From: a virus
Lineage: Duplodnaviria > Caudoviricetes
Strand: one strand, 5' to 3'
Virus record (IMG/VR): IMGVR_UViG_3300023174_000203
Span: 1 to 55,683 of that record
Length of the DNA: 55,683 nucleotides
The notes under the pieces are model-generated. The model saw nothing but the letters and a program-made list of their open reading frames with translations. It did no database searches and had not been told where the DNA came from. The translations under genes were made by a program, and so were the position numbers. Shown one piece after another: positions 5,548 to 36,305 of this stretch; the first letter of the stretch is position 1; the number at the start of each line of letters is the position of its first letter.

Positions 5548-8394
5548 TTATTTATTAGACTTTTTTTTATCCTCTATTTCTTTTTCTTTTTTCTCGCGCT
5601 CTAGGCGTTCTTTCTTAGCGGCGTTACCCATTCTTTTCATGAAGGATGGTTTATTATAGTAGGGAGTTGCTTCGTCAATCTGCTCTTCTTCTTTTACAGG
5701 CTTCATTTTTTCGTTTTCTGGCTCTTCTTTATACTTCTTAGTATAGACAGTACCAGTTGAAATTTTCTTCTTATCAAATTTGCTCTTTAGAGCGTCTTTC
5801 ATTCTTTTCTTAGCATCATCCACTGTTGGAAATGCTTCGTTAACCTGAGTTTCTTCTTTTGCTAGACGGTCTGCAGCCTTTTCAATACCAGCCATTCTGT
5901 TCTTTAGCTTTACTTTTACTTCTGGTCTAGCATCTTTAACCATTCCTGAAGGTGACTCGCGTCCTACTAATTGCTTATCACGACCATATTCTTTAGATGC
6001 TTTCTTAACATAAGAACCTAATGTAGATTTCTTTAGTTCGTCAATCTGCTCTTCTTCTTCTTCTTTTACAGGCTTCATTTTTGTTTTTGCTGTATGAACA
6101 TTTGTAAGAGGATTCTTTTGGCGCTTACTTGCAGCAATAAAGTTCTTATTGTTCTTTTCAATCTTTCTTCGATAATCGTTCTTATCTTCATTAACTTCAC
6201 TTTGCATATAGTCAGCAACAGTACTAATATAATCAGCAGCCAGAGTAATCTTGCTCTGTACCCATTCAGCCATATTGGTATCATCTTTTAGCATATCATG
6301 TGCCTGCTTAGCGTTAGCCATAATACTACGCAGCTGACTCTTTGCCATGTCGCCTTCATAATCGTATTCTCTAGGATCCTTGGCTTCATTTGCTTTAGCA
6401 ATACCCTTCTCACGCTTCTTAATAAAGTTCTTAGCGATATCTCTGTACTCTTCACCCTTTTTAGTATAAGGTATAGATTGCTTTATTTGATCTTTAGCCT
6501 TAGCAACATATGATGCTTTAGTTGCAGGTGATAGTTCATCTAACTGTTCAATCTCTTCTTTCATTCTTACATCAGCACGCATAGATCCAGCTGTGCGTTT
6601 AGCTAATTTTTTTTGTACAGAAGGAGGATTATTTGAGTATTTGTATTTCTTAATATACTCACTAGCTTTTGCTTTATAATCGCTTACAGTCTTTTGTGAC
6701 ACTTCATCGATCTGAACATCTTCTGATGTAGGTTTTTTATTCATCAAACGTACTGTTGCGTTTGCCATACCTGATACGTCTTTCTGTGAAGGAACACCCG
6801 GCTTATTTGTCTTCTTTTGAAGATAAGATTTAAGTGTAGTCTTTTTCAATTCATAAATTTGATTGATCTCTTCTTTAACTGCAGCATTTTTAAATTTATT
6901 CCAATCTGATTTATCAGTGCTAACAACCTTATGAAGTGGTACTACGTGCTTTGATGCTGTATGAACTTTAGTTCCTGCACTACCGCCAGTTTTATGAGAT
7001 ACTTTGCTTATATGGTGTTTACCTTCGTGCTTATAGATAACCGTGCCGCCGTTAGCGATATCATCTTCGCTATAACCTTCTTTAAGTCCCTTTGCAGCAG
7101 TCTTATCAGTTTTAATGTTTCTAATAACTGCAGTATAATCAGTAGCAAGCTTTTTAGTTGGATTTTTATTCTGTGTCTGACCTTTAACCATATTATAATC
7201 AGTAGTTACAGATTCATTTTTAGACATCTTAGCCATCTTATTCTTGAGCATATTCATCTTTGACTGATGCACTTTAACTGCCATATCATCACCAGATTTA
7301 TTAGCAGCAATTGCTTTTTCGGAATGACGATCTAATGCAGCTTTTAGATTTGCAGCTTTATCTTTACCAAATGCAGCTTCATTCTTCATACTTAGACTAC
7401 GTAGAAAACCATCTTCTTTTGGGATTGGATTTTCTTTTTTACGTCGTTGTGTTTCGTAATCTGTAGTTTTATCTTGTGCTTTTAAAAGTTCCAAATATTT
7501 TTTTTGTCTTTGAACCGCATTTTGTGCATTGGCAACTGCTTGATCCGATGACATTGACGGTAAATTGGGTTGAGGACGATTTACAGATTCGTCTAGTTCA
7601 ACTTCTTCTTTAATTCCTGCGTGCTCAGAGCCATGAACTTTATAGCCCCTCTTCTTATAAAACTTTTCACCAAGTTTTTGAGCAGATTCTTTATTTGGTC
7701 CATGATTAACTATAACATGCTTTAAAGTCTGTTCTTTACGCTTAGTTACCATAGGATGATCTGGCTCAGAAACGGTAACAGCAATACGATGCTTAACTGG
7801 TGCTGGAGCAACAGGAGCTTGTTCTAGTTGAAGATCTTCTTTCATTCCTTTTTTAAAACCTTTGAAGTTCTTACGAGGATTAGTCATGTCCTTCTCATCA
7901 GCTTCTTCTTCTTCTTTCTCTGCCTTCTTAGATTCTTTCTCGTCTTCGTTTTCTTCTTCATCATCTTCTTCGTCTTTTTTAGACTTCTTAGCTTCAATCA
8001 TCTGTTCAGCTTTTTCTTCTTCTTCTTTCTTCATACGAAGTTTCTTGAAGTCTTCAGCATCAAGCTTGCCATTCTTATTAACGTCGATCTTTTTCTGGCC
8101 ACCAACAAGTTTCTCTTCAATCTCTTCGACTTCTTCTTTACGAAGAGCTGTCTTAGTCTTCGACATCATTGATTGATCATTAACAACCACATCTAGAAGA
8201 TCTTGCATAACCTTAAGAAGCATCTCACGCTTAGCTGGATTCTTCATCGATGCTTCTGGATTTTCTAAAGCCTTCATAACAGCCGATGCATTCTTATCAT
8301 GGCCTAGACCTGAACGTACTAGATCTTGTTTTGCTCTAACTGATGCAGGAGTTGCCTCTGCAAGAATCTTTCTGATTTCTTTTTCGACTGACAT
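5548..8394 (-). CDS. 948 aa modular, Lys/Glu-rich putative internal head polyprotein
   Basis: Repeated (I/L/V)xE junctions, EF-hand-like DVNKNGKLDAED, EYDYEGDMAK module, LKKSTLGSYVKKA-like repeats. Confidence 0.6.
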   Translation of the reverse strand: MSVEKEIRKILAEATPASVRAKQDLVRSGLGHDKNASAVMKALENPEASMKNPAKREMLLKVMQDLLDVVVNDQSMMSKTKTALRKEEVEEIEEKLVGGQKKIDVNKNGKLDAEDFKKLRMKKEEEEKAEQMIEAKKSKKDEEDDEEENEDEKESKKAEKEEEEADEKDMTNPRKNFKGFKKGMKEDLQLEQAPVAPAPVKHRIAVTVSEPDHPMVTKRKEQTLKHVIVNHGPNKESAQKLGEKFYKKRGYKVHGSEHAGIKEEVELDESVNRPQPNLPSMSSDQAVANAQNAVQRQKKYLELLKAQDKTTDYETQRRKKENPIPKEDGFLRSLSMKNEAAFGKDKAANLKAALDRHSEKAIAANKSGDDMAVKVHQSKMNMLKNKMAKMSKNESVTTDYNMVKGQTQNKNPTKKLATDYTAVIRNIKTDKTAAKGLKEGYSEDDIANGGTVIYKHEGKHHISKVSHKTGGSAGTKVHTASKHVVPLHKVVSTDKSDWNKFKNAAVKEEINQIYELKKTTLKSYLQKKTNKPGVPSQKDVSGMANATVRLMNKKPTSEDVQIDEVSQKTVSDYKAKASEYIKKYKYSNNPPSVQKKLAKRTAGSMRADVRMKEEIEQLDELSPATKASYVAKAKDQIKQSIPYTKKGEEYRDIAKNFIKKREKGIAKANEAKDPREYDYEGDMAKSQLRSIMANAKQAHDMLKDDTNMAEWVQSKITLAADYISTVADYMQSEVNEDKNDYRRKIEKNNKNFIAASKRQKNPLTNVHTAKTKMKPVKEEEEEQIDELKKSTLGSYVKKASKEYGRDKQLVGRESPSGMVKDARPEVKVKLKNRMAGIEKAADRLAKEETQVNEAFPTVDDAKKRMKDALKSKFDKKKISTGTVYTKKYKEEPENEKMKPVKEEEQIDEATPYYNKPSFMKRMGNAAKKERLEREKKEKEIEDKKKSNK
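5671..6082. repeat. Near-identical ~40-46 bp direct repeat (5671-5710 and 6037-6082)
   Basis: ttcgtcaatctgctcttcttc(ttcttc)ttttacaggcttcattttt, encoding KMKPVKEEE(EE)QIDE at module junctions. Confidence 0.9.
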
Positions 8395-8793: not shown

Positions 8794-11640
8794 TTAGTCA
8801 TTATCAATAATCTTCAATTTTCGCTGTGCTTTAATATTACGCGAGATCAAATAATTAGATAGGTTATCAACATCCTTATCATTACCTGGACCTGGTTCTT
8901 GATTCAGGTTTTTAGGTAATGTTTGGAAACGTGGGTCATCAGCAAGATGCGCTGATGGTGGACGTTCAGTATTTCCACTTTGAGCATCTACGATCTTTCT
9001 GTATATATCAACAACATAACCATGCTCTGAATTGAGGTTCATATCACCAGCAAACTTCATTACTTTCATTGCTGCTAGTTTTGCTGCTGCAACATCTTCT
9101 GGAGTTGCAAACTTAGATACTTGAACTTTCTTCCAGATTCCAAATAGGTTATCTTGTTCTTGTGCAGCCATCGATGCCATGTTTGGATCAGTTCCTTTTG
9201 GAAGATTCATGTAAAGCTTTTGTGCTTCAGGACTTGTTTCAAAATGCTTTGAACGATATGAACCAACAAAGATCTGATCTTCAGGATCATTCTCCATTTG
9301 CTTACTCGAGCGAACTGTAGTGCTTGTCATTTTAGGTGCAGCTTTCATCTCTTTAAATGACATAATCTTTCTAACTTCAGGATGATGTTCAAATCCACCT
9401 AAACTCTCATTTGTTGTTTTTGCTCTAGCGTTTTGAAGCTGTCTTTTAAACCCTTGTGCTGTAGTACTGTCACCACGCTGAAGAGCACCTGCTATCTTTT
9501 TATGTATCGCAGCAGCAACGTGTTTACCCGCTTTAGCCATGGCTGCAGCAGCTCTTAGATGTGAAGCTGCATCTTCATTGATCTCTACTTCTTCTTTTCT
9601 AAGTGCATCGATCTCTTTCTGCTTTTGAGCAATTCTCTTCTTATACTCTTCAGGATCAGGTAGACCAGATTTCTTACGAAGTTCTTGATGACGACGATAC
9701 GCTTTTTCTGCAGCAGTTTCTTTAGGCATCTTAAAAGCTTCTTGAGCGCTCTTTAATGCATCTTTAGTTGGTGCACCTTTTGAACCTGGCTTACGCATAC
9801 GCTCACCTGAACCATTCTTAATACGTTCACGCTTGGCATGAATATTGGCCCAAAGACCAGCTTCATTAAGACCTTCTTTTTTCACCTTTGCCCATAGATC
9901 TGCATCAGCAGTTGTTCTTGTCTTACCACCAGATAAGAATGAATTTACTCGTGCAAATGCCCATTGTTGTGGTGTTGTTCCAGGACGGTGACTCGATTTA
10001 TATGCACCCATTCCACGCTTAAATACTTGCTTTAGAATACCAAGAGACACACCTGATTTTTCTGCTTTTTTCTTTAGACCATCAACAGCTTCTTCACTGA
10101 TCTCGGTCATCTCGATACGATCCATTACATTTTCAATGATCGTCAATAACTCATCGGTGTCATCTTTCTCTTCACCGATCATCTTCTTGAAGTTAGTATA
10201 GTTAGCACTTGCATTTTTAATGAATGCTAGTTTATCAGCGGGCTTCTTAAGCCCGAAATAATGATCGAGCGCTTTACGAGCTTGATCTGGTTTAATCATT
10301 ACTGCAGGACCTTGATCAAACGTAACATCCTTTTTACCATGCATTGAGATGGATTTTTGAAGTTGAATAATCAGATTCTGATCTGCTTCACGACCATTAT
10401 CTGGACCGTAATCCTCTTCACCATCTTCTTTAGCTTTTACTTTTGCTGCAGCTGCACGTTTAGCAAGCGTCTCAGGTTTAGCTGGACGACCGCGGCGTTT
10501 TACTTGCTGTGACATCTCTTTAAATGAAACCATTTCCATAATATCGTTTTCCTCTTTCACAGGCTTAATAGGTTGTGCTTTCATAGCTTGACCTAAATTA
10601 AATGATCTCAGTCTTTGAACTTCTTTCTTACGAACAGTAGGTAATAAACGTGATGCGATTCGCTTAATCAATGCTCCCTTTTTATCAATAGTCCTATCAA
10701 CTGCAATTTTATCTGATGGCGATAACTCATGATACTTAACACCTCTTTGACCTGCAAATCTCTTACGAGCAACATCTCTTGCCATTCTTTGCGCTCTAGC
10801 TTTTAACTTAGGAGTACCTGCTAATCTACGTTGTGCAAGTTGTTTGGCACGTAAAATCTTTGTCTTATACTTGCGCATAAGGATCTTACGCTTAATTCTT
10901 TGCTGAAGATTTAATACTGCTTCATTCAACAGACCTTCAGCTTCTAATTCGTTTTCCATCTCTTCACGAATATGCATCTCAACTTTTAATACGTTGAATA
11001 TCTCTGTAGCTACTGATTTAAGCTTAGATGGAAGACCTGACTTAAATGCCTTAATATCGTTCTCTCGTACTGCTTGTCTCATCTTAGACGCTGACATACC
11101 TGCTACTCCTTCTGCATCGGGATCACGCTCACCAGCGGATTCAACAACGATGCTATCAAAATTATATTCTTTTCCGTTATACTTGTTTAATAGTGAACTA
11201 AATTCATTCACACGATCTGAACCTACTACAACTGTAATATTTTTATATGTGTTCTCTAATTCTTTTAATACCTCAATAATAGTCTTTGCCTTTGAAACAT
11301 GCATAAGATCGCCAAATGCTTCGCGAGCATATTTCATCTTGTCTTTGTATGACAATGGATTCTTTTTACTATCTTGGGAGTGTGAGAGATATACTAGTGG
11401 TTTTGCTCTTTTACTTGCTGCAATCTTTTTGACTGCTTCCACTAGCTTTTGATGTCCTACAGTAGGAGGATTAAACCTACCGAAAGTTAGCACCACGGCG
11501 TTACCTGCTTGTTCGGCCACCTCGGATGGCACCTTTGGGTTTATTTCTATCTTATCAAGTTGCTTCTTACTAGTCGAAAAACCAGCTGAGGAGGCTTTTG
11601 GGGGAGTCTTTGACTTGTTTATTTCAATCTTCTTTTCCAT
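8794..11640 (-). CDS. 948 aa multidomain protein: HxGH-class nucleotidyl(cytidylyl)transferase plus C-terminal basic modules
   Basis: TFGRFNPPTVGH, VVGSDRV, SAGERDPD, MSASKMR; later GMGAYKSSHRPGTTPQQWAFARVNSF and GLWANIHAKR modules. Confidence 0.8.
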   Translation of the reverse strand: MEKKIEINKSKTPPKASSAGFSTSKKQLDKIEINPKVPSEVAEQAGNAVVLTFGRFNPPTVGHQKLVEAVKKIAASKRAKPLVYLSHSQDSKKNPLSYKDKMKYAREAFGDLMHVSKAKTIIEVLKELENTYKNITVVVGSDRVNEFSSLLNKYNGKEYNFDSIVVESAGERDPDAEGVAGMSASKMRQAVRENDIKAFKSGLPSKLKSVATEIFNVLKVEMHIREEMENELEAEGLLNEAVLNLQQRIKRKILMRKYKTKILRAKQLAQRRLAGTPKLKARAQRMARDVARKRFAGQRGVKYHELSPSDKIAVDRTIDKKGALIKRIASRLLPTVRKKEVQRLRSFNLGQAMKAQPIKPVKEENDIMEMVSFKEMSQQVKRRGRPAKPETLAKRAAAAKVKAKEDGEEDYGPDNGREADQNLIIQLQKSISMHGKKDVTFDQGPAVMIKPDQARKALDHYFGLKKPADKLAFIKNASANYTNFKKMIGEEKDDTDELLTIIENVMDRIEMTEISEEAVDGLKKKAEKSGVSLGILKQVFKRGMGAYKSSHRPGTTPQQWAFARVNSFLSGGKTRTTADADLWAKVKKEGLNEAGLWANIHAKRERIKNGSGERMRKPGSKGAPTKDALKSAQEAFKMPKETAAEKAYRRHQELRKKSGLPDPEEYKKRIAQKQKEIDALRKEEVEINEDAASHLRAAAAMAKAGKHVAAAIHKKIAGALQRGDSTTAQGFKRQLQNARAKTTNESLGGFEHHPEVRKIMSFKEMKAAPKMTSTTVRSSKQMENDPEDQIFVGSYRSKHFETSPEAQKLYMNLPKGTDPNMASMAAQEQDNLFGIWKKVQVSKFATPEDVAAAKLAAMKVMKFAGDMNLNSEHGYVVDIYRKIVDAQSGNTERPPSAHLADDPRFQTLPKNLNQEPGPGNDKDVDNLSNYLISRNIKAQRKLKIIDND

Positions 11641-24613: not shown

Positions 24614-25087
24614 TTACTCATCAGATTTTTCTTTGATAGAAATTTTCTTTGCTTTCTTAGCTTCTGGAATTAGTCTTTCTAACCAGATTTTCAATAGACC
24701 ATTAATATATTCTGCGTTCTTAATCTCTACAGAATCTGCAATAGTGAATGAACGAGTGAAAGCGCGATCGGAGATACCTTTCCACAGATAGTTGACATTG
24801 TCACTTTCTTCTGTTTCCGATCCAAGTATTGAACTGCCCTTTACTGTAAGAATGCCTTCATTGATCTCAACGTCTAGTTCTTGTTTAGAAAAACCAGCAA
24901 CGGCAAGTTCAATGACGTATCTGTTTTCATCAACTTTTTTGATGTTGTATGGAGGATAGTTCGGAATGTTTTTGGTTAGGTCATTATGAAGCTTAGTTAG
25001 TCTGTTGAGTTGTTCATCAAAACCAACAAAATGTTTATCAAAGTCCTTAAAACCGGGGCCAAACATTGCTAGATGATTCACGGTCAT
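24614..25087 (-). CDS. Small heat-shock protein (Hsp20/IbpA-like)
   Basis: YPPYNI, IELAVAGF, KGISDRAFTRSF, NGLLKI; start 25087 follows AGGAG. Confidence 0.95.
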   Translation of the reverse strand: MTVNHLAMFGPGFKDFDKHFVGFDEQLNRLTKLHNDLTKNIPNYPPYNIKKVDENRYVIELAVAGFSKQELDVEINEGILTVKGSSILGSETEESDNVNYLWKGISDRAFTRSFTIADSVEIKNAEYINGLLKIWLERLIPEAKKAKKISIKEKSDE

Positions 25088-25154
25088 GCTTTTTTCTCCT
25101 ATTAAGCGAGTAATTAAAATGTAGATCCCTAAGGCATCTACAGGTTTATTTATA
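25088..25154 (-). promoter_or_regulatory. Late promoter (25147-25154) and structured leader with ROSE-like hairpin
   Basis: TATAAATA; hairpin TGTAGAT...ATCTACA; CTCGCT-TAAT-AGGAG SD-sequestering hairpin. Confidence 0.65.
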
Positions 25155-25155
25155 T

Positions 25156-25231
25156 TGGAGCGGATGATCAGGTTCGAACTGACGACATTCTGCTTGGAAG
25201 GCAGACGCTCTACCAACTGAGCTACATCCGC
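25156..25231 (-). tRNA. tRNA-Gly (TCC)
   Basis: 76 nt cloverleaf GCGGATG...CATCCGC-T-CCA; anticodon arm TCTGC-CTTCCAA-GCAGA. Confidence 0.97.
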
Positions 25232-25703: not shown

Positions 25704-25719
25704 GATAAAGCTTTATGGG

Positions 25720-25790
25720 CTACGATGCACGGACTCGAACCGCGACAGGCAGTTTTGGAGACTGCAGTGCTACCATTACACCACACCGTA
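25720..25790 (-). tRNA. tRNA-Trp (CCA)
   Basis: Acceptor TACGGTG/CATCGTA, anticodon arm GCAGT-CTCCAAA-ACTGC, T loop TTCGAGT; followed by CCCA. Confidence 0.92.
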
Positions 25791-25800
25791 ATTCTCTTTT

Positions 25801-29510: not shown

Positions 29511-30416
29511 TCATTTGGGTTCTGCAAACACATATAGATTACCACCTTGATATGTATGCCACGGGACACAATACATGGTGATATTTGTTTTCGTTAATTC
29601 AGGGAATGTGTTGATAAACCAATTTAGATTATCAATACTACCATTAAATTCACATTGAAATAAAATTAGCCAATCGCAAGCACCAACTTTCTTGATGATT
29701 CTTTCACGATACTCAATCTGAGTTTCACTAAATGAATGTGTTCCTATTAGAAGAACTTTCTTTCCAGTAAAATCAGGAAGTTGATCGATATCACTTGCTG
29801 TTTTAATATCAGCAAGATCTTCATTGTAGTACTTAACGATCTTAGTCATAGGATCAAAGTCTACATCCCAATACTCACCTTTGAATCCATGTAGATGAAT
29901 GAGTCTTGCTAACTCACCCATACCACCGCCAATTTCAATGATCACATCATAATCACTGATCTTTTTACCAGTTTCTTTTTCATACTTAACTATATTATGA
30001 AGTTTGATTGGCTGAAGATAGTTAGTAGTTACTGAATTATCTTTATCACCAACTTTAATAGAAAAGTTATAGGTAGTTCTTTCATTGAAACCATTCCTAT
30101 ATCCTCTATCAGTTTCTTCTAGCATCTTAATATATGTAAGTTTACTTTCATCTGAATTAGTTGAAAGCATTTCCCATGTATCTCTTAGATAAGCAGTTGA
30201 TAAACGATGCATTTCCTCTGATGCTTGTACAAAGATAGGAACACGATAGATGATTGCTTCATCTTTAAATCCATACAACCGTTTCTCATCAGCAAATACC
30301 TGCTCAAAAAGAGCAGGTACCTTTTCCCAATATTGAGGATCATCTTGAGCAGGATATTGTGCAAGAATTGGATCAATGATCTCCAAATCTTGATTTGTGT
30401 TATATACAAAATCCAT
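29511..30416 (-). CDS. SAM-dependent methyltransferase (putative sugar O-methyltransferase)
   Basis: IIEIGGGMGELAR motif I, DVD, HSFSE. Confidence 0.65.
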   Translation of the reverse strand: MDFVYNTNQDLEIIDPILAQYPAQDDPQYWEKVPALFEQVFADEKRLYGFKDEAIIYRVPIFVQASEEMHRLSTAYLRDTWEMLSTNSDESKLTYIKMLEETDRGYRNGFNERTTYNFSIKVGDKDNSVTTNYLQPIKLHNIVKYEKETGKKISDYDVIIEIGGGMGELARLIHLHGFKGEYWDVDFDPMTKIVKYYNEDLADIKTASDIDQLPDFTGKKVLLIGTHSFSETQIEYRERIIKKVGACDWLILFQCEFNGSIDNLNWFINTFPELTKTNITMYCVPWHTYQGGNLYVFAEPK

Positions 30417-30417
30417 A

Positions 30418-31368
30418 TTATTTCTTCTTTATCTTTTCAATGTCTGCAGTTGCAGATGCACCAATAGAAGCAAGATCAGCAAGCGATCCACCAAATACAT
30501 AACTACCAACGTGCTGCAGTTTCATCCAAGGATTCAACCATACTTTTAGACCAGCGTTTTGTGCGTAGTAACAGAACATATAATCTTCTGATAGATAACG
30601 CTTAGAAGATGTTTTTTCTGCTTCAAGCATTGTCTGTGCACGCTTTACTAATGCTTCAGGTTTTTCACCATTAGCAAGATCTTCCATCAAACGATGCACA
30701 TCATCAAAAGTATAACCACGATCGATAACACAATCAAAGTAAGCATGAATTTCACGTGAACCATCAAATGCTTCTGTACGTACATGATCAGGTTTATACG
30801 AAAGAGAAGGATATGCTTTTTCTATAGTTTCAAACGTAGAACGACGGATCATCATGAATCCAGTTCCACCTTCACGCACTTCAACTGGTTGATTGATAGG
30901 GATTTCGTTCTGACCACTCTTAGGATTAAATACATAATCACCAACGTAGCGCTCTAAAACATTAGCATCATTATCAGCAACACCCTTATCTACTGCTTGC
31001 TTGATCTTTTCCCATGAGATACACTTCTTAGGATATGGTCCACACATAACATCATATTCAGTTTCATCTCCCATCAAAGCAAGCATCGCAACTACGTCTT
31101 GAGCAGAGAATCCAATATCACTATCAATGAACATCATGTGAGTTGCATTTGAACGCAAGAACTCATCAGCACAATAGTTACGTGCACGAGTAATCAACGA
31201 TTCATTGAATAAGAAATAGAATTGAAGTTGAATACCATAGTTAGTACATAGCGCAGAAAGATCTGCGATTGAACGAGTGAACATACCTGCACATTGTCCA
31301 CCATACATAGGTGCTGATACAAACAATTTACGTTTGCGCAGCTCATCAGTTGAGATTTTAATCTCCAT
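30418..31368 (-). CDS. GT-A fold glycosyltransferase-like protein
   Basis: PMYGG, ESLITRARN, FIDSD (DxD), GTGFMMI, LSEDY, LQHVG. Confidence 0.8.
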   Translation of the reverse strand: MEIKISTDELRKRKLFVSAPMYGGQCAGMFTRSIADLSALCTNYGIQLQFYFLFNESLITRARNYCADEFLRSNATHMMFIDSDIGFSAQDVVAMLALMGDETEYDVMCGPYPKKCISWEKIKQAVDKGVADNDANVLERYVGDYVFNPKSGQNEIPINQPVEVREGGTGFMMIRRSTFETIEKAYPSLSYKPDHVRTEAFDGSREIHAYFDCVIDRGYTFDDVHRLMEDLANGEKPEALVKRAQTMLEAEKTSSKRYLSEDYMFCYYAQNAGLKVWLNPWMKLQHVGSYVFGGSLADLASIGASATADIEKIKKK

Positions 31369-31649
31369 TATTTACTCTCCTTTTTATTTTCACTTTGATC
31401 GTGAACATGTAATTGCAAAATTGCGTAATGAATTATCTTCATCAGGTCTTTACGCGCTTCACCTGATTTTTTTCCATACCTACCTGAATATTTTTGAATG
31501 CAGCCGATGTTGAATCCTGTGCCATGACCTGTTGCGATGATTAAATCCATTGGTTGAACTTCATCGCCGTAGTGTGCACCATAGCAGGCATTGACGTAGT
31601 CGGTTATTTCTTTTATATACTTGTCTTCATTAAACCGATACTTGCTCAT
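31368..31649 (-). CDS. DUF3310-like protein
   Basis: HY...GFNIGCIQKYSGRYGKK...DLMKIIHY. Confidence 0.75.
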   Translation of the reverse strand: MSKYRFNEDKYIKEITDYVNACYGAHYGDEVQPMDLIIATGHGTGFNIGCIQKYSGRYGKKSGEARKDLMKIIHYAILQLHVHDQSENKKESK

Positions 31650-32664
31650 GATCTATAACTTTCTTCAAATAATTATGTGCTACACTTAAAGCAGAAGAAA
31701 CTGCTTGGTGCATATCAATGTAAACATACATTCCACATCGCCCGATAAATGTCATCTTAGGATGTTTAATCGCGGCATATAGTTTATATATCTCCCTGTT
31801 CGTGCCCGATAGATCTTTTACAGGATAATATCTTTCCATATTATTTGTACGATAGTCACAAGGTTCTTCATACGTGAGAGTTGTCATTTCAGGATTATGC
31901 CCATGATTAGGAATATTCTTCCATTCTGTCATTCGAGTATAAGGGCCATGATGCGTAAAATTTACTGTTGTCGTAGGAAGAATTCTTGGAGCAGGAATAT
32001 CGACATGATGGAACTTGATTGAACGGTAAGGTAATTCTCCATGACAGTAGTCATGATAGACATCAATTGGCATCGAATTAAAAATGTGGTCATAATCTTT
32101 CTCCATTGATTTATCAAAAGATGTTCCTAATGATACAGTGATACCTTCCCAATCAAGCATATTAGAGATAAGAGCAGTATACCCATCTCTTGGTATCGCT
32201 TGATATTCATCATCAGGAAAATAGTATTCATTAAAGTCATTTCTAATTGGTACACGATTTATAATTGATGGATCTAATTCTTCAATATCCATTCCCCACA
32301 TCTTTTTAGTGTATGGGCGAATAAAGATATCAACGATATTATCTTCACCAACAATATCTTTTGTAGCACGATTAACTGGCAATGTAACATAATCACCATT
32401 GCTTAATAGAGCTTTTACTTTATGCTTATATGGAATCCACTCAGTGAATCGTCCTAGATAATCATAAACCTTTTTATTGTTTGTATGAAATAGATGAGGG
32501 CCATACGCATGCATTCTAATTTTATGGTCATTTACAAAATCATATGCATTACCTGCAATGTGATAACGCTTATCAATGATAGTTACATTATGACCAGCTT
32601 CAGCAAGTTCTCTAGCAATTACAGCACCAGAGAATCCTGCTCCAACTACTAAGATTTTAGACAT
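31630..32664 (-). CDS. glf: UDP-galactopyranose mutase
   Basis: GAGFSG, HIAGNAYD, YGPHLFHT, YTKKMWG, LPYRS, ERYYP, GRCGMYVYIDM. Confidence 0.93.
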   Translation of the reverse strand: MSKILVVGAGFSGAVIARELAEAGHNVTIIDKRYHIAGNAYDFVNDHKIRMHAYGPHLFHTNNKKVYDYLGRFTEWIPYKHKVKALLSNGDYVTLPVNRATKDIVGEDNIVDIFIRPYTKKMWGMDIEELDPSIINRVPIRNDFNEYYFPDDEYQAIPRDGYTALISNMLDWEGITVSLGTSFDKSMEKDYDHIFNSMPIDVYHDYCHGELPYRSIKFHHVDIPAPRILPTTTVNFTHHGPYTRMTEWKNIPNHGHNPEMTTLTYEEPCDYRTNNMERYYPVKDLSGTNREIYKLYAAIKHPKMTFIGRCGMYVYIDMHQAVSSALSVAHNYLKKVIDHEQVSV

Positions 32665-33674
32665 AGATTAAGCTCCGCCTTTTGTGTTTCTTTATTGAGA
32701 GGGTGTATTCTATATAGCGCTTCTCTCTGTGCTGCTGCCAAATCTTCGAGTTCTTTATCACACATATCAACAAGATCTTTTGCTTTTATATCTGCAAGCG
32801 TTTCATCTTCATAGTAAATAAACATCTCATCTGGATCACCAATAAGAATAGATCCCGCATCTGCAACTTGAAGAGGTCTTGCTCTCCACCAACCAGATCC
32901 TGCATGAAAATATCCAGGCATTAAGATACCCCAATGTTCTGCATAGATATTTACCATCACGTCTTCAGTTACACGATCTTGACCATCTTTTCGTGAACCA
33001 TATTTCATCAAAGGCCAATCATTATCATTAATACCTTGTGCTTTAAGCCACTTCTTTGTTTTATCTTGAATTAATCCTGCAAAATTAAATATACGTTGTT
33101 TAGGTTCAACAACAAGATTATTTGGTTTACGATTGAGATGATAAGGATTTGGGTTATACGTAAATATTTTATCGCGTGGATAATCTAATAGAAGAGTAGG
33201 ATCACCACCACGAAATGCAGAGATTAATAGATTATTAGTTTTAGATTGAATAAGATCCAATGCTTCAACAAAATCTTTTTCCCATTCAGTTACATTTTCT
33301 GGGATATTGGTATGACTTTCAAGAACGTATTTTCGAAATAGTTTTTCGGGGTCTCTAAGCGCGAGCAATCCTGAGTAGATACTATCAGTTTGCCAGTCAT
33401 CAAATGCAAGAGTACAGTCTCTTCTTCTAGCAATCGTATAGAGCGCGTTATATACATAAGCAGCGAAACCTGAAGGATTGTGAATATACACAATAACTTT
33501 GTCGTATTTGTCAAGATTTTCTCCAATATCTACAACTCGCTGCTCTACTTCATGTCCCATATCACGGAGACAACGAATTAAACTATAATGTGATGGAACA
33601 ACTTTAAGCTGTTGACTTGCATAGAAGTCTTCAGTGCACTGCAGCTTATTCATTCCTGTGATTAGTATTTTCAT
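32649..33674 (-). CDS. GT-B DNA glycosyltransferase, distant T4 beta-glucosyltransferase homolog
   Basis: Colinear matches to recalled T4 BGT segments: MKILI, KVVPS, RDMGHEV, DKYDKVIV, FDDWQ, ARPLQVADAGSILIGD, AAQREAL; similar length. Confidence 0.65.
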   Translation of the reverse strand: MKILITGMNKLQCTEDFYASQQLKVVPSHYSLIRCLRDMGHEVEQRVVDIGENLDKYDKVIVYIHNPSGFAAYVYNALYTIARRRDCTLAFDDWQTDSIYSGLLALRDPEKLFRKYVLESHTNIPENVTEWEKDFVEALDLIQSKTNNLLISAFRGGDPTLLLDYPRDKIFTYNPNPYHLNRKPNNLVVEPKQRIFNFAGLIQDKTKKWLKAQGINDNDWPLMKYGSRKDGQDRVTEDVMVNIYAEHWGILMPGYFHAGSGWWRARPLQVADAGSILIGDPDEMFIYYEDETLADIKAKDLVDMCDKELEDLAAAQREALYRIHPLNKETQKAELNLCLKS

Positions 33675-34546
33675 TTTAACTCCATCTCATATGCTGATCT
33701 ACACATATCAGCCAACGATCTTTCAACTGTTAGATACTCAGAAGTTCCATCGATTTCAAGAATATCAGGATCTCCTTCACGACGTGGACCAAATTCTTCA
33801 AGCCAACTTTTGCCTGTAACATCTTTCATTATATCAAGAACCTCTAAATTTGTAAACCCTTTATTTGAACCAAGGCATTCATATTCAGCATTCTTAGGAT
33901 TAGAAAAAGCAGCATTCACTATCGCTTTAGCAAGATCAACAACATGAATATAATCCCTAATACAAGTACCATCTCGTGTAGGATAGTCACCTCCATTTAT
34001 GATTACCTTTTCTCTTTTACCTGCAGCAGCTTCTGCAGCAACTCTAATTAAATGTGTTGAGGGACCAAACTGACGATGTTCACCATTAGAACCAGCAACA
34101 TTGAAGAATCTAAAGATTGTATAACCAGGTGCTAACTGTCGAATAACATCTTCAGCTGCTACTTTAGATTTTGCATATGGAGAAACAGGATCAAATGCTC
34201 CTGCTGTTGATGCGAATATAAAATGTTTACACTTTACATTCTTAAGAATATTAATTGTTCCATTTAAATTAGTATCGTAGTATTCATATGGCTTTTCCAT
34301 ACTCTCACCAACTCGTACTAATCCAGCAAGATGAATTACTACGTCATACATAAGACCATGTTGAATATCACGCACATCTTTTTGTATAAGCGTATGACAA
34401 TATGGATTAATATAATTTCTATATGCTGTGTCTATATCAAGAGCTGTAATATAAACTTCACGTGCATTTACTTGCTTATATAATTCTTTCAATACATGAG
34501 CACCAATATAACCCGTAGCTCCTGTTACTAATATGCTTGTAGCCAT
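33671..34546 (-). CDS. galE: UDP-glucose 4-epimerase
   Basis: TGATGYIG, HLAG, FAST, YAKSK, RFFNVAG, DGTCIRDYIHVVDLA, RREGD. Confidence 0.9.
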   Translation of the reverse strand: MATSILVTGATGYIGAHVLKELYKQVNAREVYITALDIDTAYRNYINPYCHTLIQKDVRDIQHGLMYDVVIHLAGLVRVGESMEKPYEYYDTNLNGTINILKNVKCKHFIFASTAGAFDPVSPYAKSKVAAEDVIRQLAPGYTIFRFFNVAGSNGEHRQFGPSTHLIRVAAEAAAGKREKVIINGGDYPTRDGTCIRDYIHVVDLAKAIVNAAFSNPKNAEYECLGSNKGFTNLEVLDIMKDVTGKSWLEEFGPRREGDPDILEIDGTSEYLTVERSLADMCRSAYEMELK

Positions 34547-34890
34547 TCTTTACAATCCTTTAATATCTCATTTACTTTATCATGATCGTTCATCATTCTA
34601 TTTCTAGGTGATGGATGTGGCAAGGTGTAATGCTCGATGCCTAGTGTATTTAGCGTCTTCGAAACATGACCACCTAATGCAATCACACGATAATAGTCTA
34701 TAATTTGAACTAATAGACTATCATAATCTATTTCTTTAAAGTCCCATTCAGGATCATCAGAGAGATTTGTAAACGAGACGACGCCTGTGCCGAGATAATC
34801 AATCCACGAACACAGGCGATTCCAAGCTCCGTTCTTATGTACTTTGTTTGCTAATCGGGATGGGTTCAAACCCACTATTATAGTCTGCAC
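34528..34890 (-). CDS. Minimal uracil-DNA glycosylase-like protein
   Basis: IIVGLNPS, FTN, IALG, LPHPSPRN. Confidence 0.7.
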   Translation of the reverse strand: MQTIIVGLNPSRLANKVHKNGAWNRLCSWIDYLGTGVVSFTNLSDDPEWDFKEIDYDSLLVQIIDYYRVIALGGHVSKTLNTLGIEHYTLPHPSPRNRMMNDHDKVNEILKDCKEWLQAY

Positions 34891-35323
34891 AATATTCAGA
34901 ATATTTTACGCCTGCTTCATCAAACATATCTCGTGTGTCTTCCCACGATTTTAGCCAACGAAGATCAACGTATTGGTCAGTAAAAATATGAACTTCTTTA
35001 ATGCCTACTTGAATAATACCTTTAGCACATTCACTGCATATAGGAAGTCCATACACGTATAATGCTGCACCATCAAGAGATACACCAGAGAATGTCGCGT
35101 TATAGATAACGTTCATCTCAGCATGCACTACATATTTGTATTTAGTAGGCCTATCATCTAATCTTTCAATTGAATCATCAATGCCTCGAGGAAAACCATT
35201 ATAACCTTGAGAAAGAATTTGGCCTTTGCTTCCTACTGCAACAGCACCAATTTTTCTAGATGGATCTTTACTCCAATCAGAAACTTCTTTTGCAAGATTT
35301 AAATATCTTTTATTCCATCTCAT
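34835..35323 (-). CDS. dCMP deaminase
   Basis: WSKDP, GYNGFPRG, HAEMN, PICSEC. Confidence 0.93.
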   Translation of the reverse strand: MRWNKRYLNLAKEVSDWSKDPSRKIGAVAVGSKGQILSQGYNGFPRGIDDSIERLDDRPTKYKYVVHAEMNVIYNATFSGVSLDGAALYVYGLPICSECAKGIIQVGIKEVHIFTDQYVDLRWLKSWEDTRDMFDEAGVKYSEYCADYNSGFEPIPISKQST

Positions 35324-35967
35324 TTTACTAATCCAAAATGTCTTTCATATACATGAAGACTTCCTACACTCCAGATAATATCTCCAAGTTCAACACCAAG
35401 TTCATCGCATAATGCAAGAGCAACATATTCTTGCCATGCATAATCATTCTTATAACCGAAGACAACATCATTACTTCGCATTTGAACAACTACTTGTAGC
35501 TTATTATCACGAATCATGTATTGAACAGCATTTGTGCAGATGAAGTCACTCATACCATCAATATTATAATCATTCCAAATCATTGGACGAGTATAGATCA
35601 TGCATGCACGGCGAGAGAATGGATTACGACGAAGTTCTTCTAGAACATTTTGATATTGATTCCAGTTCTCATCATGCCAAATAAGATAACCATAGTTAGA
35701 ATTAATCCAACCTTGAGTAGATGCAACTTGTTTCCATATATCAGGAGGACCACCGGGAATATCACCAACATTCAATGACATTGATTTATACCAATCAAGT
35801 TCACGTTGAATATACTCTTGATTAGGAGTACCAAAGATTGCAGGTTTATCAGCCAAGAAAGTTGCACCGATAATCTCGATCATGTTGACGCCAGTTTTAT
35901 CCTGGACAAATTTCTTCTGTTCAAGATTGCGTACAAATATATCTCGAATGTTATCAATACTCATCAT
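35320..35967 (-). CDS. 42: dCMP hydroxymethylase (T4 gp42)
   Basis: DKTGV..IEIIGA, EYIQREL.WYKS, INSNYG, IYTRP, GMSDFICTN, MRSNDVVFG.KNDYAWQ, GSLHVY; Asp at the specificity position. Confidence 0.93.
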   Translation of the reverse strand: MMSIDNIRDIFVRNLEQKKFVQDKTGVNMIEIIGATFLADKPAIFGTPNQEYIQRELDWYKSMSLNVGDIPGGPPDIWKQVASTQGWINSNYGYLIWHDENWNQYQNVLEELRRNPFSRRACMIYTRPMIWNDYNIDGMSDFICTNAVQYMIRDNKLQVVVQMRSNDVVFGYKNDYAWQEYVALALCDELGVELGDIIWSVGSLHVYERHFGLVK

Positions 35968-36305
35968 GGTATCATCTTCCTATTCAAGAAGTCACGAGTA
36001 GTTGATTGACCTTCGATACCACCACGCATGTAAGCAACAAAGAACGATGCATAGTTAATTAGATCGACTGCTGAATCTTCCATTGATTCAAAGTTTGGAA
36101 CATAATTAGGATCATTTTCCATCGCTTCCATAACAGATTGAATGCGAAGAATTTTACCATTCATTACATCTAGAATTGATGCGCAACCACGTGGATAGTA
36201 GTCTGCTTGTTTGATACGACTATTAGGATTCTGATAATCGTTTGATTTGCGGGTTTGAATTTCAGCAGCTTGTTGTAGGACTTTTAAAGATTCTTTCATG
36301 TACAC
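35964..36305 (-). CDS. Nucleotide-modification-associated domain protein (DUF1599/Nmad1-like)
   Basis: KSNDY, KILRI, ESMEDSAVDLINYA. Confidence 0.7.
   Translation of the reverse strand: MYMKESLKVLQQAAEIQTRKSNDYQNPNSRIKQADYYPRGCASILDVMNGKILRIQSVMEAMENDPNYVPNFESMEDSAVDLINYASFFVAYMRGGIEGQSTTRDFLNRKMIP

Follow-up and report, generated by a model that had tools for sequence, protein, structure and literature searches.

In this study, we examined an open reading frame (ORF) carried by a contig of an uncultivated T4-like myovirus (IMG/VR record IMGVR_UViG_3300023174_000203). The whole stretch of DNA analysed, 55.7 kb with a G+C content of ~35% and covering ~31% of the genome, is called the window here; the gene, ORF X, lies on its minus strand (32649..33674) and encodes 341 amino acids from an ATG start. 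Our findings favour, if only somewhat, a model where ORF X is an enzyme resembling the β-glucosyltransferase (BGT) of phage T4 that transfers galactofuranose from UDP-galactofuranose (UDP-Galf) to 5-hydroxymethylcytosine (hmC) in phage DNA. The parts of this model differ in strength: ORF X is very probably a BGT-related glycosyltransferase, it likely serves the hypermodification of DNA at cytosine C5, and UDP-Galf is, with reasonable confidence, its donor. The original prediction, made by eye from the sequence, had described ORF X as a remote BGT homologue acting on hmC DNA with a different sugar, and this interpretation is now supported by evidence independent of that by-eye alignment.

The relationship to BGT was brought out by profile-profile comparison. 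An alignment of ORF X and 68 homologues, down to ~25% identity (A1, 69 sequences), was compared with 30 BGT-family proteins (A2) and with 53 broader BGT proteins reaching down to ~22% identity to T4 (A3), using hhalign without secondary-structure information and the T4 b-gt sequence from the T4 genome record. A1 and A2 aligned with a probability of 93.6% (E 2.1e-7, score 59.8) across 301 columns, positions 1-337 of ORF X facing 1-351 of BGT at 14% identity, which bears out the whole-length homology first proposed; with A3 the probability was 95.3% (E 2e-8, score 67.6), in the same register. The controls were low: A1 scored 14.4 against reversed A2, at most 21.2 against 20 column-shuffled versions of A2, and at most 23.3 against 10 other transferases (T4 α-glucosyltransferase (α-GT) and WaaG, B, F, C, Q, A, J, O and U). 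GT4 (a profile of 7 E. coli proteins) and GT9 profiles gave 13.6 and 19.9, and scored 16.9 and 24.6 against the BGT profile A3; the single T4 BGT sequence, on the other hand, gave 35.1 against A1. GT4, GT9 and nine E. coli envelope transferases were set aside as relatives of ORF X. A faint signal came from HMMER, where a hidden Markov model (HMM) of A1 reached 15.6 bits against 107 BGT-family proteins and 2.0 bits against the reversed set. Since the controls are low and HMMER points in the same direction, the link is specific to the BGT family and not a generic likeness between two-Rossmann proteins. A language-model neighbour cluster of ORF X in which 40% of the members carry PF09198 (score 0.97) offers a lead only.

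Direct searches between the two families were negative. By BLASTP, the best match of ORF X to T4 BGT was not significant (E 0.36); phmmer with ORF X returned nothing from PDB at E≤10, and the HMM of the 69 homologues found no BGT match there. PF09198, the T4 BGT family (CAZy GT63), was found at E≤0.01 in none of the 69 homologues and at E≤1 nowhere in the contig, and a Pfam scan of the same 69 matched a single member, weakly, to Glyco_transf_4. Because PF09198 is absent from the family, ORF X is best called, going by its sequence, a distant sister family of BGT and not a PF09198 member.

At residue level, all motif strings of the original prediction occur in the minus-strand ORF, and the A1/A2 residue map reproduces all seven motif pairs matched by eye, the pair D93/Asp100 included. 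Written as ORF X/BGT, the map joins M1/M1, the KVVPS/KTVPS stretch, G40/G34, V43/V37, Y57/Y59, D58/D60, D93/Asp100, R266/R269, D280/D283 and Q316/Q327. ORF X D93, aligned with the catalytic base Asp100 of BGT, is Asp in 67/69 homologues and is followed by an invariant W94; R266 (BGT R269) and Q316 (BGT Q327) are each kept in 68/69, G226 (BGT G214) is nearly invariant, Y57-D58 (BGT Y59-D60) are found in 56 and 60 of the 69, respectively, and Q232 (BGT Q220) in 41/69. Within A2/A3, R191, R195, Y261, R269 and E272, the UDP-binding residues of BGT, are invariant or nearly so; R195 is unaligned in the ORF X map. The family also has signatures of its own, namely MKILxTG, D92-D93-W94, K/R192-x-R194-x-W196, G226, E237, H257-A-G-S-G-W-W-R264-x-R266 and Q316, with R264 and R266 invariant or nearly so. 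Given that the N-terminal MKILxTG is conserved among homologues (L4 and T6 in 67/69, G7 in 69/69), the start codon is correctly placed.

The family itself is large and viral. A large protein collection holds 667 homologues at E≤0.001, a search of clusters at 50% identity gave 530 representatives, and the language-model neighbour clusters of ORF X are 99-100% viral. The only family label matched by ORF X is PHROG 14998 ("unknown function"); it hits no Pfam family at E≤0.1 and no NCBIfam family, and Pfam domains are likewise absent from the best 120 of the 667 homologues.

The case for a DNA target begins 1.6 kb upstream of ORF X, with an orthologue of the T4 gp42 dCMP hydroxymethylase (35320..35967, minus; PDB 1b49, T4 deoxycytidylate hydroxymethylase, E 4.6e-82). 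Residues distinguishing thymidylate synthase, hmC synthase and 5-hydroxycytosine (5hoC) synthase are given in the relevant sections of Lee et al. 2026 (PMC13326640). In an alignment with E. coli ThyA, the enzyme of the window shows 143D, C146, 169D and 177D, as T4 gp42 does, in contrast to the 169N of RB69 gp48; given these T4-type residues, the phage is predicted to make hmC DNA. The hmC-synthase residues 143D/169D/177D are found in all 7 genomes that carry an ORF X homologue, a UDP-galactopyranose mutase (Glf) and an aligned ThyA-like gene. We also collected 80 IMG/VR loci with ORF X relatives (36-99% identity, found via query peptide patterns), which include near-duplicates, so that counts over them are not of independent events and lose some of their force for our reading; where the upstream sequence reaches 3 kb or more (55 loci), 49 have a gp42-like gene. 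The order gp42, DUF1599, ORF X, UvsX is seen in one subclade (L016, and L080 of a 97% complete genome), and as the T4 order is 42, b-gt, (segA), uvsX, ORF X occupies there the b-gt slot of T4. Module genes also bear mobile-element insertions: the UvsX/RecA-like ORF of L016 (7086-8911) has a Hint (intein) domain at its end, and the next ORF resembles a NUMOD3 endonuclease.

Among isolates, phage C48C1 (Kyanoviridae) has the homologue nearest to ORF X (41% identity) and gave no gp42 match. Directly upstream of this homologue lies a Tet_JBP dioxygenase gene (E 3.3e-17), and Tet/JBP dioxygenase, ORF X homologue and Glf stand in a row (L001, 6586-10033), an arrangement that suggests post-replicative formation of the acceptor base. 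A search of the 80 related loci with the C48C1 protein found no TET-like gene (0 matches), while a PF12851 search of five genomes, also without a match, had no positive control and is uninformative.

Domain fusions point the same way as the gene neighbourhoods. Among the best 150 of the 530 clusters, 14 homologues have at least 800 amino acids, and 13 of these combine a C5-cytosine DNA methylase domain at the N-terminus with a C-terminal ORF X domain; in two of the fusions (P0197 and P0222) a UDG domain is placed between the two. Other fusions involve a SAM methyltransferase (P0190) and a dUTPase_2 nucleotide pyrophosphatase domain (P0257). Viral contigs yielded neither of the methylase fusions P0164 and P0198, and a metagenome methylase fusion (L114) was dropped as an ORF X fusion, its C-terminal part reaching 10.7% probability over 28 columns. 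Inteins with LAGLIDADG endonucleases sit inside the methylase domain of P0169 and P0222. Two subclades have a C5-cytosine DNA methylase as a separate gene (L069, 3051-4262; L076, 7122-8354) right after the ORF X homologue, a gp42-like gene also being present upstream.

Canonical BGT was found in none of the 9 genomes or records that hold an ORF X homologue, the T4 positive control being recovered at E 3.5e-154; for α-GT, nothing was found in 5 records by a search that had no positive control. For Aeromonas phage 25, the pertinent part of Petrov 2010 (PMC2993671) lists genes 42 and 56 and no glucosyltransferase homologue. This phage encodes an ORF X homologue (28% identity, hhalign 100%) beside Glf. 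The two genes lie between motA and asiA (L084, 3896-6077), annotated as hypothetical and "not conserved in 44RR2.8t".

The nature of the sugar is suggested by the genes that overlap ORF X. Upstream is a GalE-like UDP-glucose 4-epimerase (33671..34546, minus; Pfam Epimerase E 1.5e-32; TIGR01179 galE E 2.3e-59 at 200.9 bits, below the cut-off of 262.3) and downstream a Glf (31630..32664, minus; Pfam GLF E 3.3e-52; TIGR00031 E 1.1e-84 at 284.6 bits, just under the cut-off of 303.75). The ATG of ORF X overlaps the stop of the GalE-like gene (ATGA) and its final 16 nt overlap the start of Glf, so the three genes look translationally coupled. Glf is present in 57 of the 80 related loci; among the 74 with at least 1.2 kb downstream it occurs in 56, and in 53 it starts no more than 200 nt from the end of ORF X. 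The pair recurs in C48C1 (where the Glf downstream of the ORF X homologue shows 57.5% identity), in Aeromonas phage 25 and its relatives, in Erwinia phage FBB1 and in DSL-LC01, a freshwater actinophage with a replication module of the pol I type, as well as in jumbo-phage contigs of 291 kb (G002) and 350 kb (G007, with Glf in its locus L079). Both genes are present in 19 Aeromonas and 2 Stenotrophomonas records of a phage collection, and G001, a 97% complete genome from a subclade without adjacent Glf, encodes Glf elsewhere. About 3.7 kb upstream of the pair on a 291-kb jumbo-phage contig there is an IS605 OrfB / Cas12f-like (TnpB-type) gene (L010, 1076-2311). Glf has no known role other than the production of UDP-galactofuranose, and its constant partner is ORF X, which is thus the best candidate for the galactofuranosyltransferase. 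The different sugar of the original prediction gains support from the overlapping GalE-like and Glf genes and from the conserved ORF X-Glf pair, as does the proposed DNA/hmC target from the adjacency of gp42, the b-gt slot, the Tet/JBP neighbour in C48C1 and the 13/14 C5 methylase fusions.

Taken together, these elements can be arranged into a pathway. The gp42 orthologue, judged by its enzyme type, would make 5-hydroxymethyl-dCMP, to be built into phage DNA. In parallel, the GalE-like enzyme would convert host UDP-glucose to UDP-galactopyranose and Glf would turn the latter into UDP-galactofuranose, the enzyme types being read from sequence and the flux presumed. The nucleotide sugar may be bound by the C-terminal half of ORF X with R264 and R266, while D93, like the aligned BGT Asp100, would activate the 5-CH2OH of hmC; by analogy with BGT, the base is expected to swing out of the helix. 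This would yield galactofuranosyl-hmC, in β linkage if an inverting mechanism is kept; a GT-A-like and a methyltransferase-like protein encoded downstream might, more speculatively, extend or methylate the sugar. The expected outcome is DNA shielded from cytosine-reading restriction enzymes and other nucleases. Base flipping by ORF X, and the labelling tool that the original prediction also envisaged, are what we infer from the likeness to BGT.

Several observations weigh against this reading, the first of which concern the homology. A BGT profile run against 5.8 billion proteins gave 107 matches, all of them PF09198 and none from the ORF X family; pairwise and HMMER-to-database searches leave the two families unlinked. 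The A1/A3 match spans the C-terminal 126 columns only, and the GT-B fold of ORF X is itself predicted from the alignment only. Furthermore, positions conserved in BGT are lost in ORF X (E22->Y30, N70->S68, R191->Q203, Y261->A258 and E272->Q269), and these are contacts for UDP or the acceptor. Their loss, together with the HAGSGWWRxR and K/R192-x-R194-x-W196 signatures proper to ORF X, fits the differing donor-binding region noted at the outset, and the conserved basic residues K/R192, R194 and R264 could substitute for the lost UDP contacts. A spurious resemblance, with ORF X not a glycosyltransferase, would agree with the missing Pfam, NCBIfam and PDB sequence matches and with an identity of only 14% in the hhalign alignment; yet two independent BGT profiles match at 94-95% probability with clean controls, conserved residues coincide, and the gene is obligately paired with nucleotide-sugar enzymes, which leaves this explanation hardly credible.

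A further point is that ORF X is acidic (pI 5.47; family median 5.93, n=213; T4 BGT 9.05), which would be unusual for a DNA-binding enzyme. Acidity would suit an enzyme that glycosylates hm-dCMP or hm-dCTP before replication and not polymer DNA, as would the fusion of homologue P0257 to a dUTPase_2 domain, and the experiments in the sections of Lee et al. 2026 (PMC13326640) on the first arabosylation do not decide between mononucleotide and DNA. Nonetheless, the domains to which 13/14 long homologues are fused, C5-cytosine DNA methylases, act on DNA. BGT also works on DNA. The C48C1 partner is of the Tet/JBP type, a family oxidising bases in DNA according to the part of the Pyle et al. preprint that deals with its role (bioRxiv 10.1101/2023.12.21.572611). 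A nucleotide acceptor therefore seems to us quite improbable. The same acidity would be compatible with an auxiliary cluster in which ORF X and the Gal genes put galactofuranose on the host envelope or on virion proteins instead of DNA: GalE and Glf are typical polysaccharide genes, distant Gordonia phage homologues of ORF X lie near another glycosyltransferase, and actinophage virion glycosylation is known (cited in PMC12619734, in the portion on the subject). The tight linkage to gp42 (49/55 loci), the Tet/JBP neighbour, the DNA methylase fusions and the b-gt slot argue otherwise, and ORF X is related specifically to BGT and not to the GT4 or GT9 envelope enzymes; we regard such a role as very unlikely.

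With regard to the donor, Glf is missing from the flank in 18 of the 74 related loci, and the second candidate transferase of the window (30418-31368) could be the user of Galf. ORF X might then be a BGT-like hmC glycosyltransferase with a pyranose donor, UDP-galactose or UDP-glucose, the UDP-Galf being consumed by the 30418-31368 product or by an enzyme encoded off the contig. The homology and DNA-context evidence serve such an enzyme equally, the GalE-like gene is directly upstream of ORF X, the second candidate is in the same operon, and the window covers only about a third (~31%) of the genome. Conversely, the GT-A-like gene is present in 10/80 loci and Glf in 57/80, which makes ORF X the only visible partner of Glf in most relatives; in 53 loci the start of Glf lies at most 200 nt from where ORF X ends, and the pair is kept across unrelated phage lineages. 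We thus consider a pyranose donor unlikely and retain UDP-Galf.

The homologue RGZ1_40 of Morganella phage Rgz1 (23% identity) also tells against a uniform use of galactofuranose. It belongs to an arabinose cluster with a 5hoC-type synthase (169N) and an RB69 gp46:47-type transferase, RGZ1_32, that is 49-53% identical to RB69 gp47/gp46. RGZ1_40 itself is located between an arabinose 5-phosphate isomerase and an NTP-transferase (L085, 6001-7068). It may be a second, unrecognised arabinosyltransferase; some branches of the ORF X family probably use other donors, for which arabinofuranose is an attractive guess, and some members may act on sugar rather than base. Could ORF X, likewise, be a second-step transferase that adds a sugar to one already on the base? 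The coexistence in Rgz1 of RGZ1_40 with RGZ1_32, a relative of the proposed first arabinosyltransferase RB69 gp46/gp47, and the two candidate transferases in the window would accord with this. However, in most related loci ORF X is the only transferase seen in the vicinity of gp42, the genomes checked have no canonical α- or β-GT (with the α-GT search lacking a positive control), ORF X takes the b-gt slot, and BGT, the nearest relative known, acts on the base, so that a second-step role appears improbable and direct galactofuranosylation of hmC is still the reading that we prefer.

The remaining genes around ORF X, all on the minus strand, are in part those of nucleotide metabolism. Furthest upstream is a DUF1599 / MazG-like putative nucleotide pyrophosphohydrolase (35964..36305), a candidate dCTPase analogue (Pfam DUF1599 E 0.018, weak; PHROG 18404 "hydrolase" E 2.7e-11) that has a relative in 60/80 related loci. 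The gp42 orthologue is followed by a dCMP deaminase (34835..35323; Pfam dCMP_cyt_deam_1 E 1.5e-18; PHROG 174). Between the latter and GalE lies a UDG-superfamily-like ORF of 120 amino acids (34528..34890; Pfam UDG E 0.0046, below cut-off), whose membership in the module is tentative; it has a relative in 24/80 related loci, and UDG-like ORFs or domains may be a recurring partner of ORF X, although this ORF showed no significant pairwise similarity (E 0.075 and 0.15) to the UDG domain found in the fusions. Downstream of Glf come a small DUF3310 protein (31368..31649; Pfam DUF3310 E 1.9e-7; PHROG 480), found in only 4/80 related loci and carrying a domain often joined to phage nucleotide kinases, and the GT-A-like second candidate glycosyltransferase (30418..31368; PHROG 1574, unknown function, E 3.7e-63; weakly PHROG 34859, glycosyltransferase). 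The latter has DxD (DSD) and EDY motifs that are invariant in 7 homologues and, by profile against PDB, a weak match to the STIV A197 glycosyltransferase (E 1.2). A possible sugar O-methyltransferase (29511..30416) is weakly indicated by TIGR04371 (NanM-type, E 3.1e-5, 23.7 bits, below the cut-off of 44) and occurs in 2/80 related loci. PF00534 (Glycos_transf_1) had no match in the contig.

Elsewhere, the window encodes a T4-type DNA polymerase, a DnaB-like helicase, a gp46-like nuclease subunit, and the major head protein, portal, sheath and terminase. Two neighbouring minus-strand ORFs (8794-11640 and 5548-8394) are each exactly 948 amino acids long and unrelated to each other; the second has a cytidylyltransferase-like N-terminus and matches PHROG 3041 (E 1.5e-79), the first having no PHROG match. 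Genes for tRNA-Gly(tcc) (25156-25231) and tRNA-Trp(cca) (25716-25791) lie on the minus strand, the former overlapping the 5' end of a mechanically listed ORF (24614-25216).

If our reading is right, galactofuranose would be a new sugar, and ORF X a new family, among the few DNA base glycosyltransferases, and galactofuranosyl-hmC an unreported natural DNA base of aquatic T4-like phages, jumbo phages, an actinophage and cultured Aeromonas and Erwinia phages. It would also explain how hmC is decorated in gene-42 phages listed without a glucosyltransferase, such as Aeromonas phage 25. In a wider form, to which we give slightly less than even credence, ORF X would be the founder of a family of DNA furanosyltransferases, confined to phages, which place β-galactofuranose on hmC and, in the Morganella/Providencia branch, arabinofuranose, with the methylase-welded members (sometimes with a UDG-like domain as well) acting as single-chain hypermodification enzymes. 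Since the family is common in viromes (667 homologues, 530 clusters), many aquatic phage genomes may resist restriction enzymes and CRISPR nucleases, and some sequencing preparations may under-represent such modified DNA. In addition, the tagging of 5hmC could gain a second and orthogonal chemistry from a BGT-like enzyme whose donor pocket differs. An ORF X homologue is carried by several phages in culture (Aeromonas phage 25, Aes508, phiAS4 and Erwinia phage FBB1), and in these the prediction can be checked.

Literature searches returned no paper joining UDP-galactopyranose mutase with an Aeromonas phage, none combining Aeromonas, hydroxymethylcytosine, glycosyltransferase and T4-like, and none linking galactofuranose to hmC, the only relevant co-mention being Lee et al. 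2026. In that study (PMC13326640), the part on Rhizobium phage RL38J1 proposes UDP-Galf biosynthesis; the phage encodes Glf, and gp215 (343 amino acids), directly downstream of a ThyA homologue, is the putative first galactosyltransferase. The acceptor there is 5-hydroxycytosine, in contrast to the hmC of the ORF X phage, and gp215 was rejected as a relative, with hhalign probabilities of 0.3% to ORF X and 0.1% to BGT. Base glycosylation with a furanose donor is also described for the arabinosyltransferases RB69 gp46:47, gp3 and DLP3, for which UDP-arabinofuranose worked in vitro according to the same sections (PMC13326640). Phages with RB69 arabinosyltransferases have 169N and form 5hoC, in contrast to the 169D and predicted hmC of the window, and an RB69-type arabinose cluster, that of Morganella phage Rgz1, holds the ORF X homologue RGZ1_40. 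RB69 gp46, gp47 and gp3 themselves were rejected as relatives (hhalign probabilities 0.1-1.8%). The RB69/DLP3 enzymes are reportedly to be credited to Thomas et al. 2018 as well, and a survey of DNA-modification glycosyltransferases said to have been made by Iyer et al. in 2013 may already mention an ORF X-like family.

Among GT-B enzymes, the accessible text of Pyle et al. (bioRxiv 10.1101/2023.12.21.572611) describes phage DNA glycosyltransferases of GT53, GT66 and GT94 that lie beside 5hmC-forming genes (methylase + TET, or ThyS), have a structural likeness to T4 BGT and attach sugars other than glucose to 5hmC; that text mentions neither a mutase nor a furanose. Compared by description and not by sequence, they share with ORF X being phage-encoded near 5hmC-forming genes. 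T4 α-GT is likewise a GT-B phage DNA hmC transferase (PMC13216743, in the relevant part), but was rejected as a relative (hhalign score 18.8, probability 0.6%). The closest known system remains T4 BGT, for which structures such as 1JG7 have been solved (PMC13216743, same part). The two proteins are similar in length (341 amino acids in ORF X, 351 in BGT) and homologous by profile over both halves; both families are phage-only and linked to hmC DNA. Asp100 and R269 of BGT are retained as D93 and R266, and the gene lies downstream of gene 42, in some relatives exactly between 42 and uvsX. On the other hand, ORF X has its own HAGSGWWRxR signature and has lost R191, Y261, E22 and N70 of BGT, it is acidic where BGT is basic, and it is paired with GalE and Glf; because of this pairing, its donor is probably UDP-galactofuranose and not UDP-glucose.

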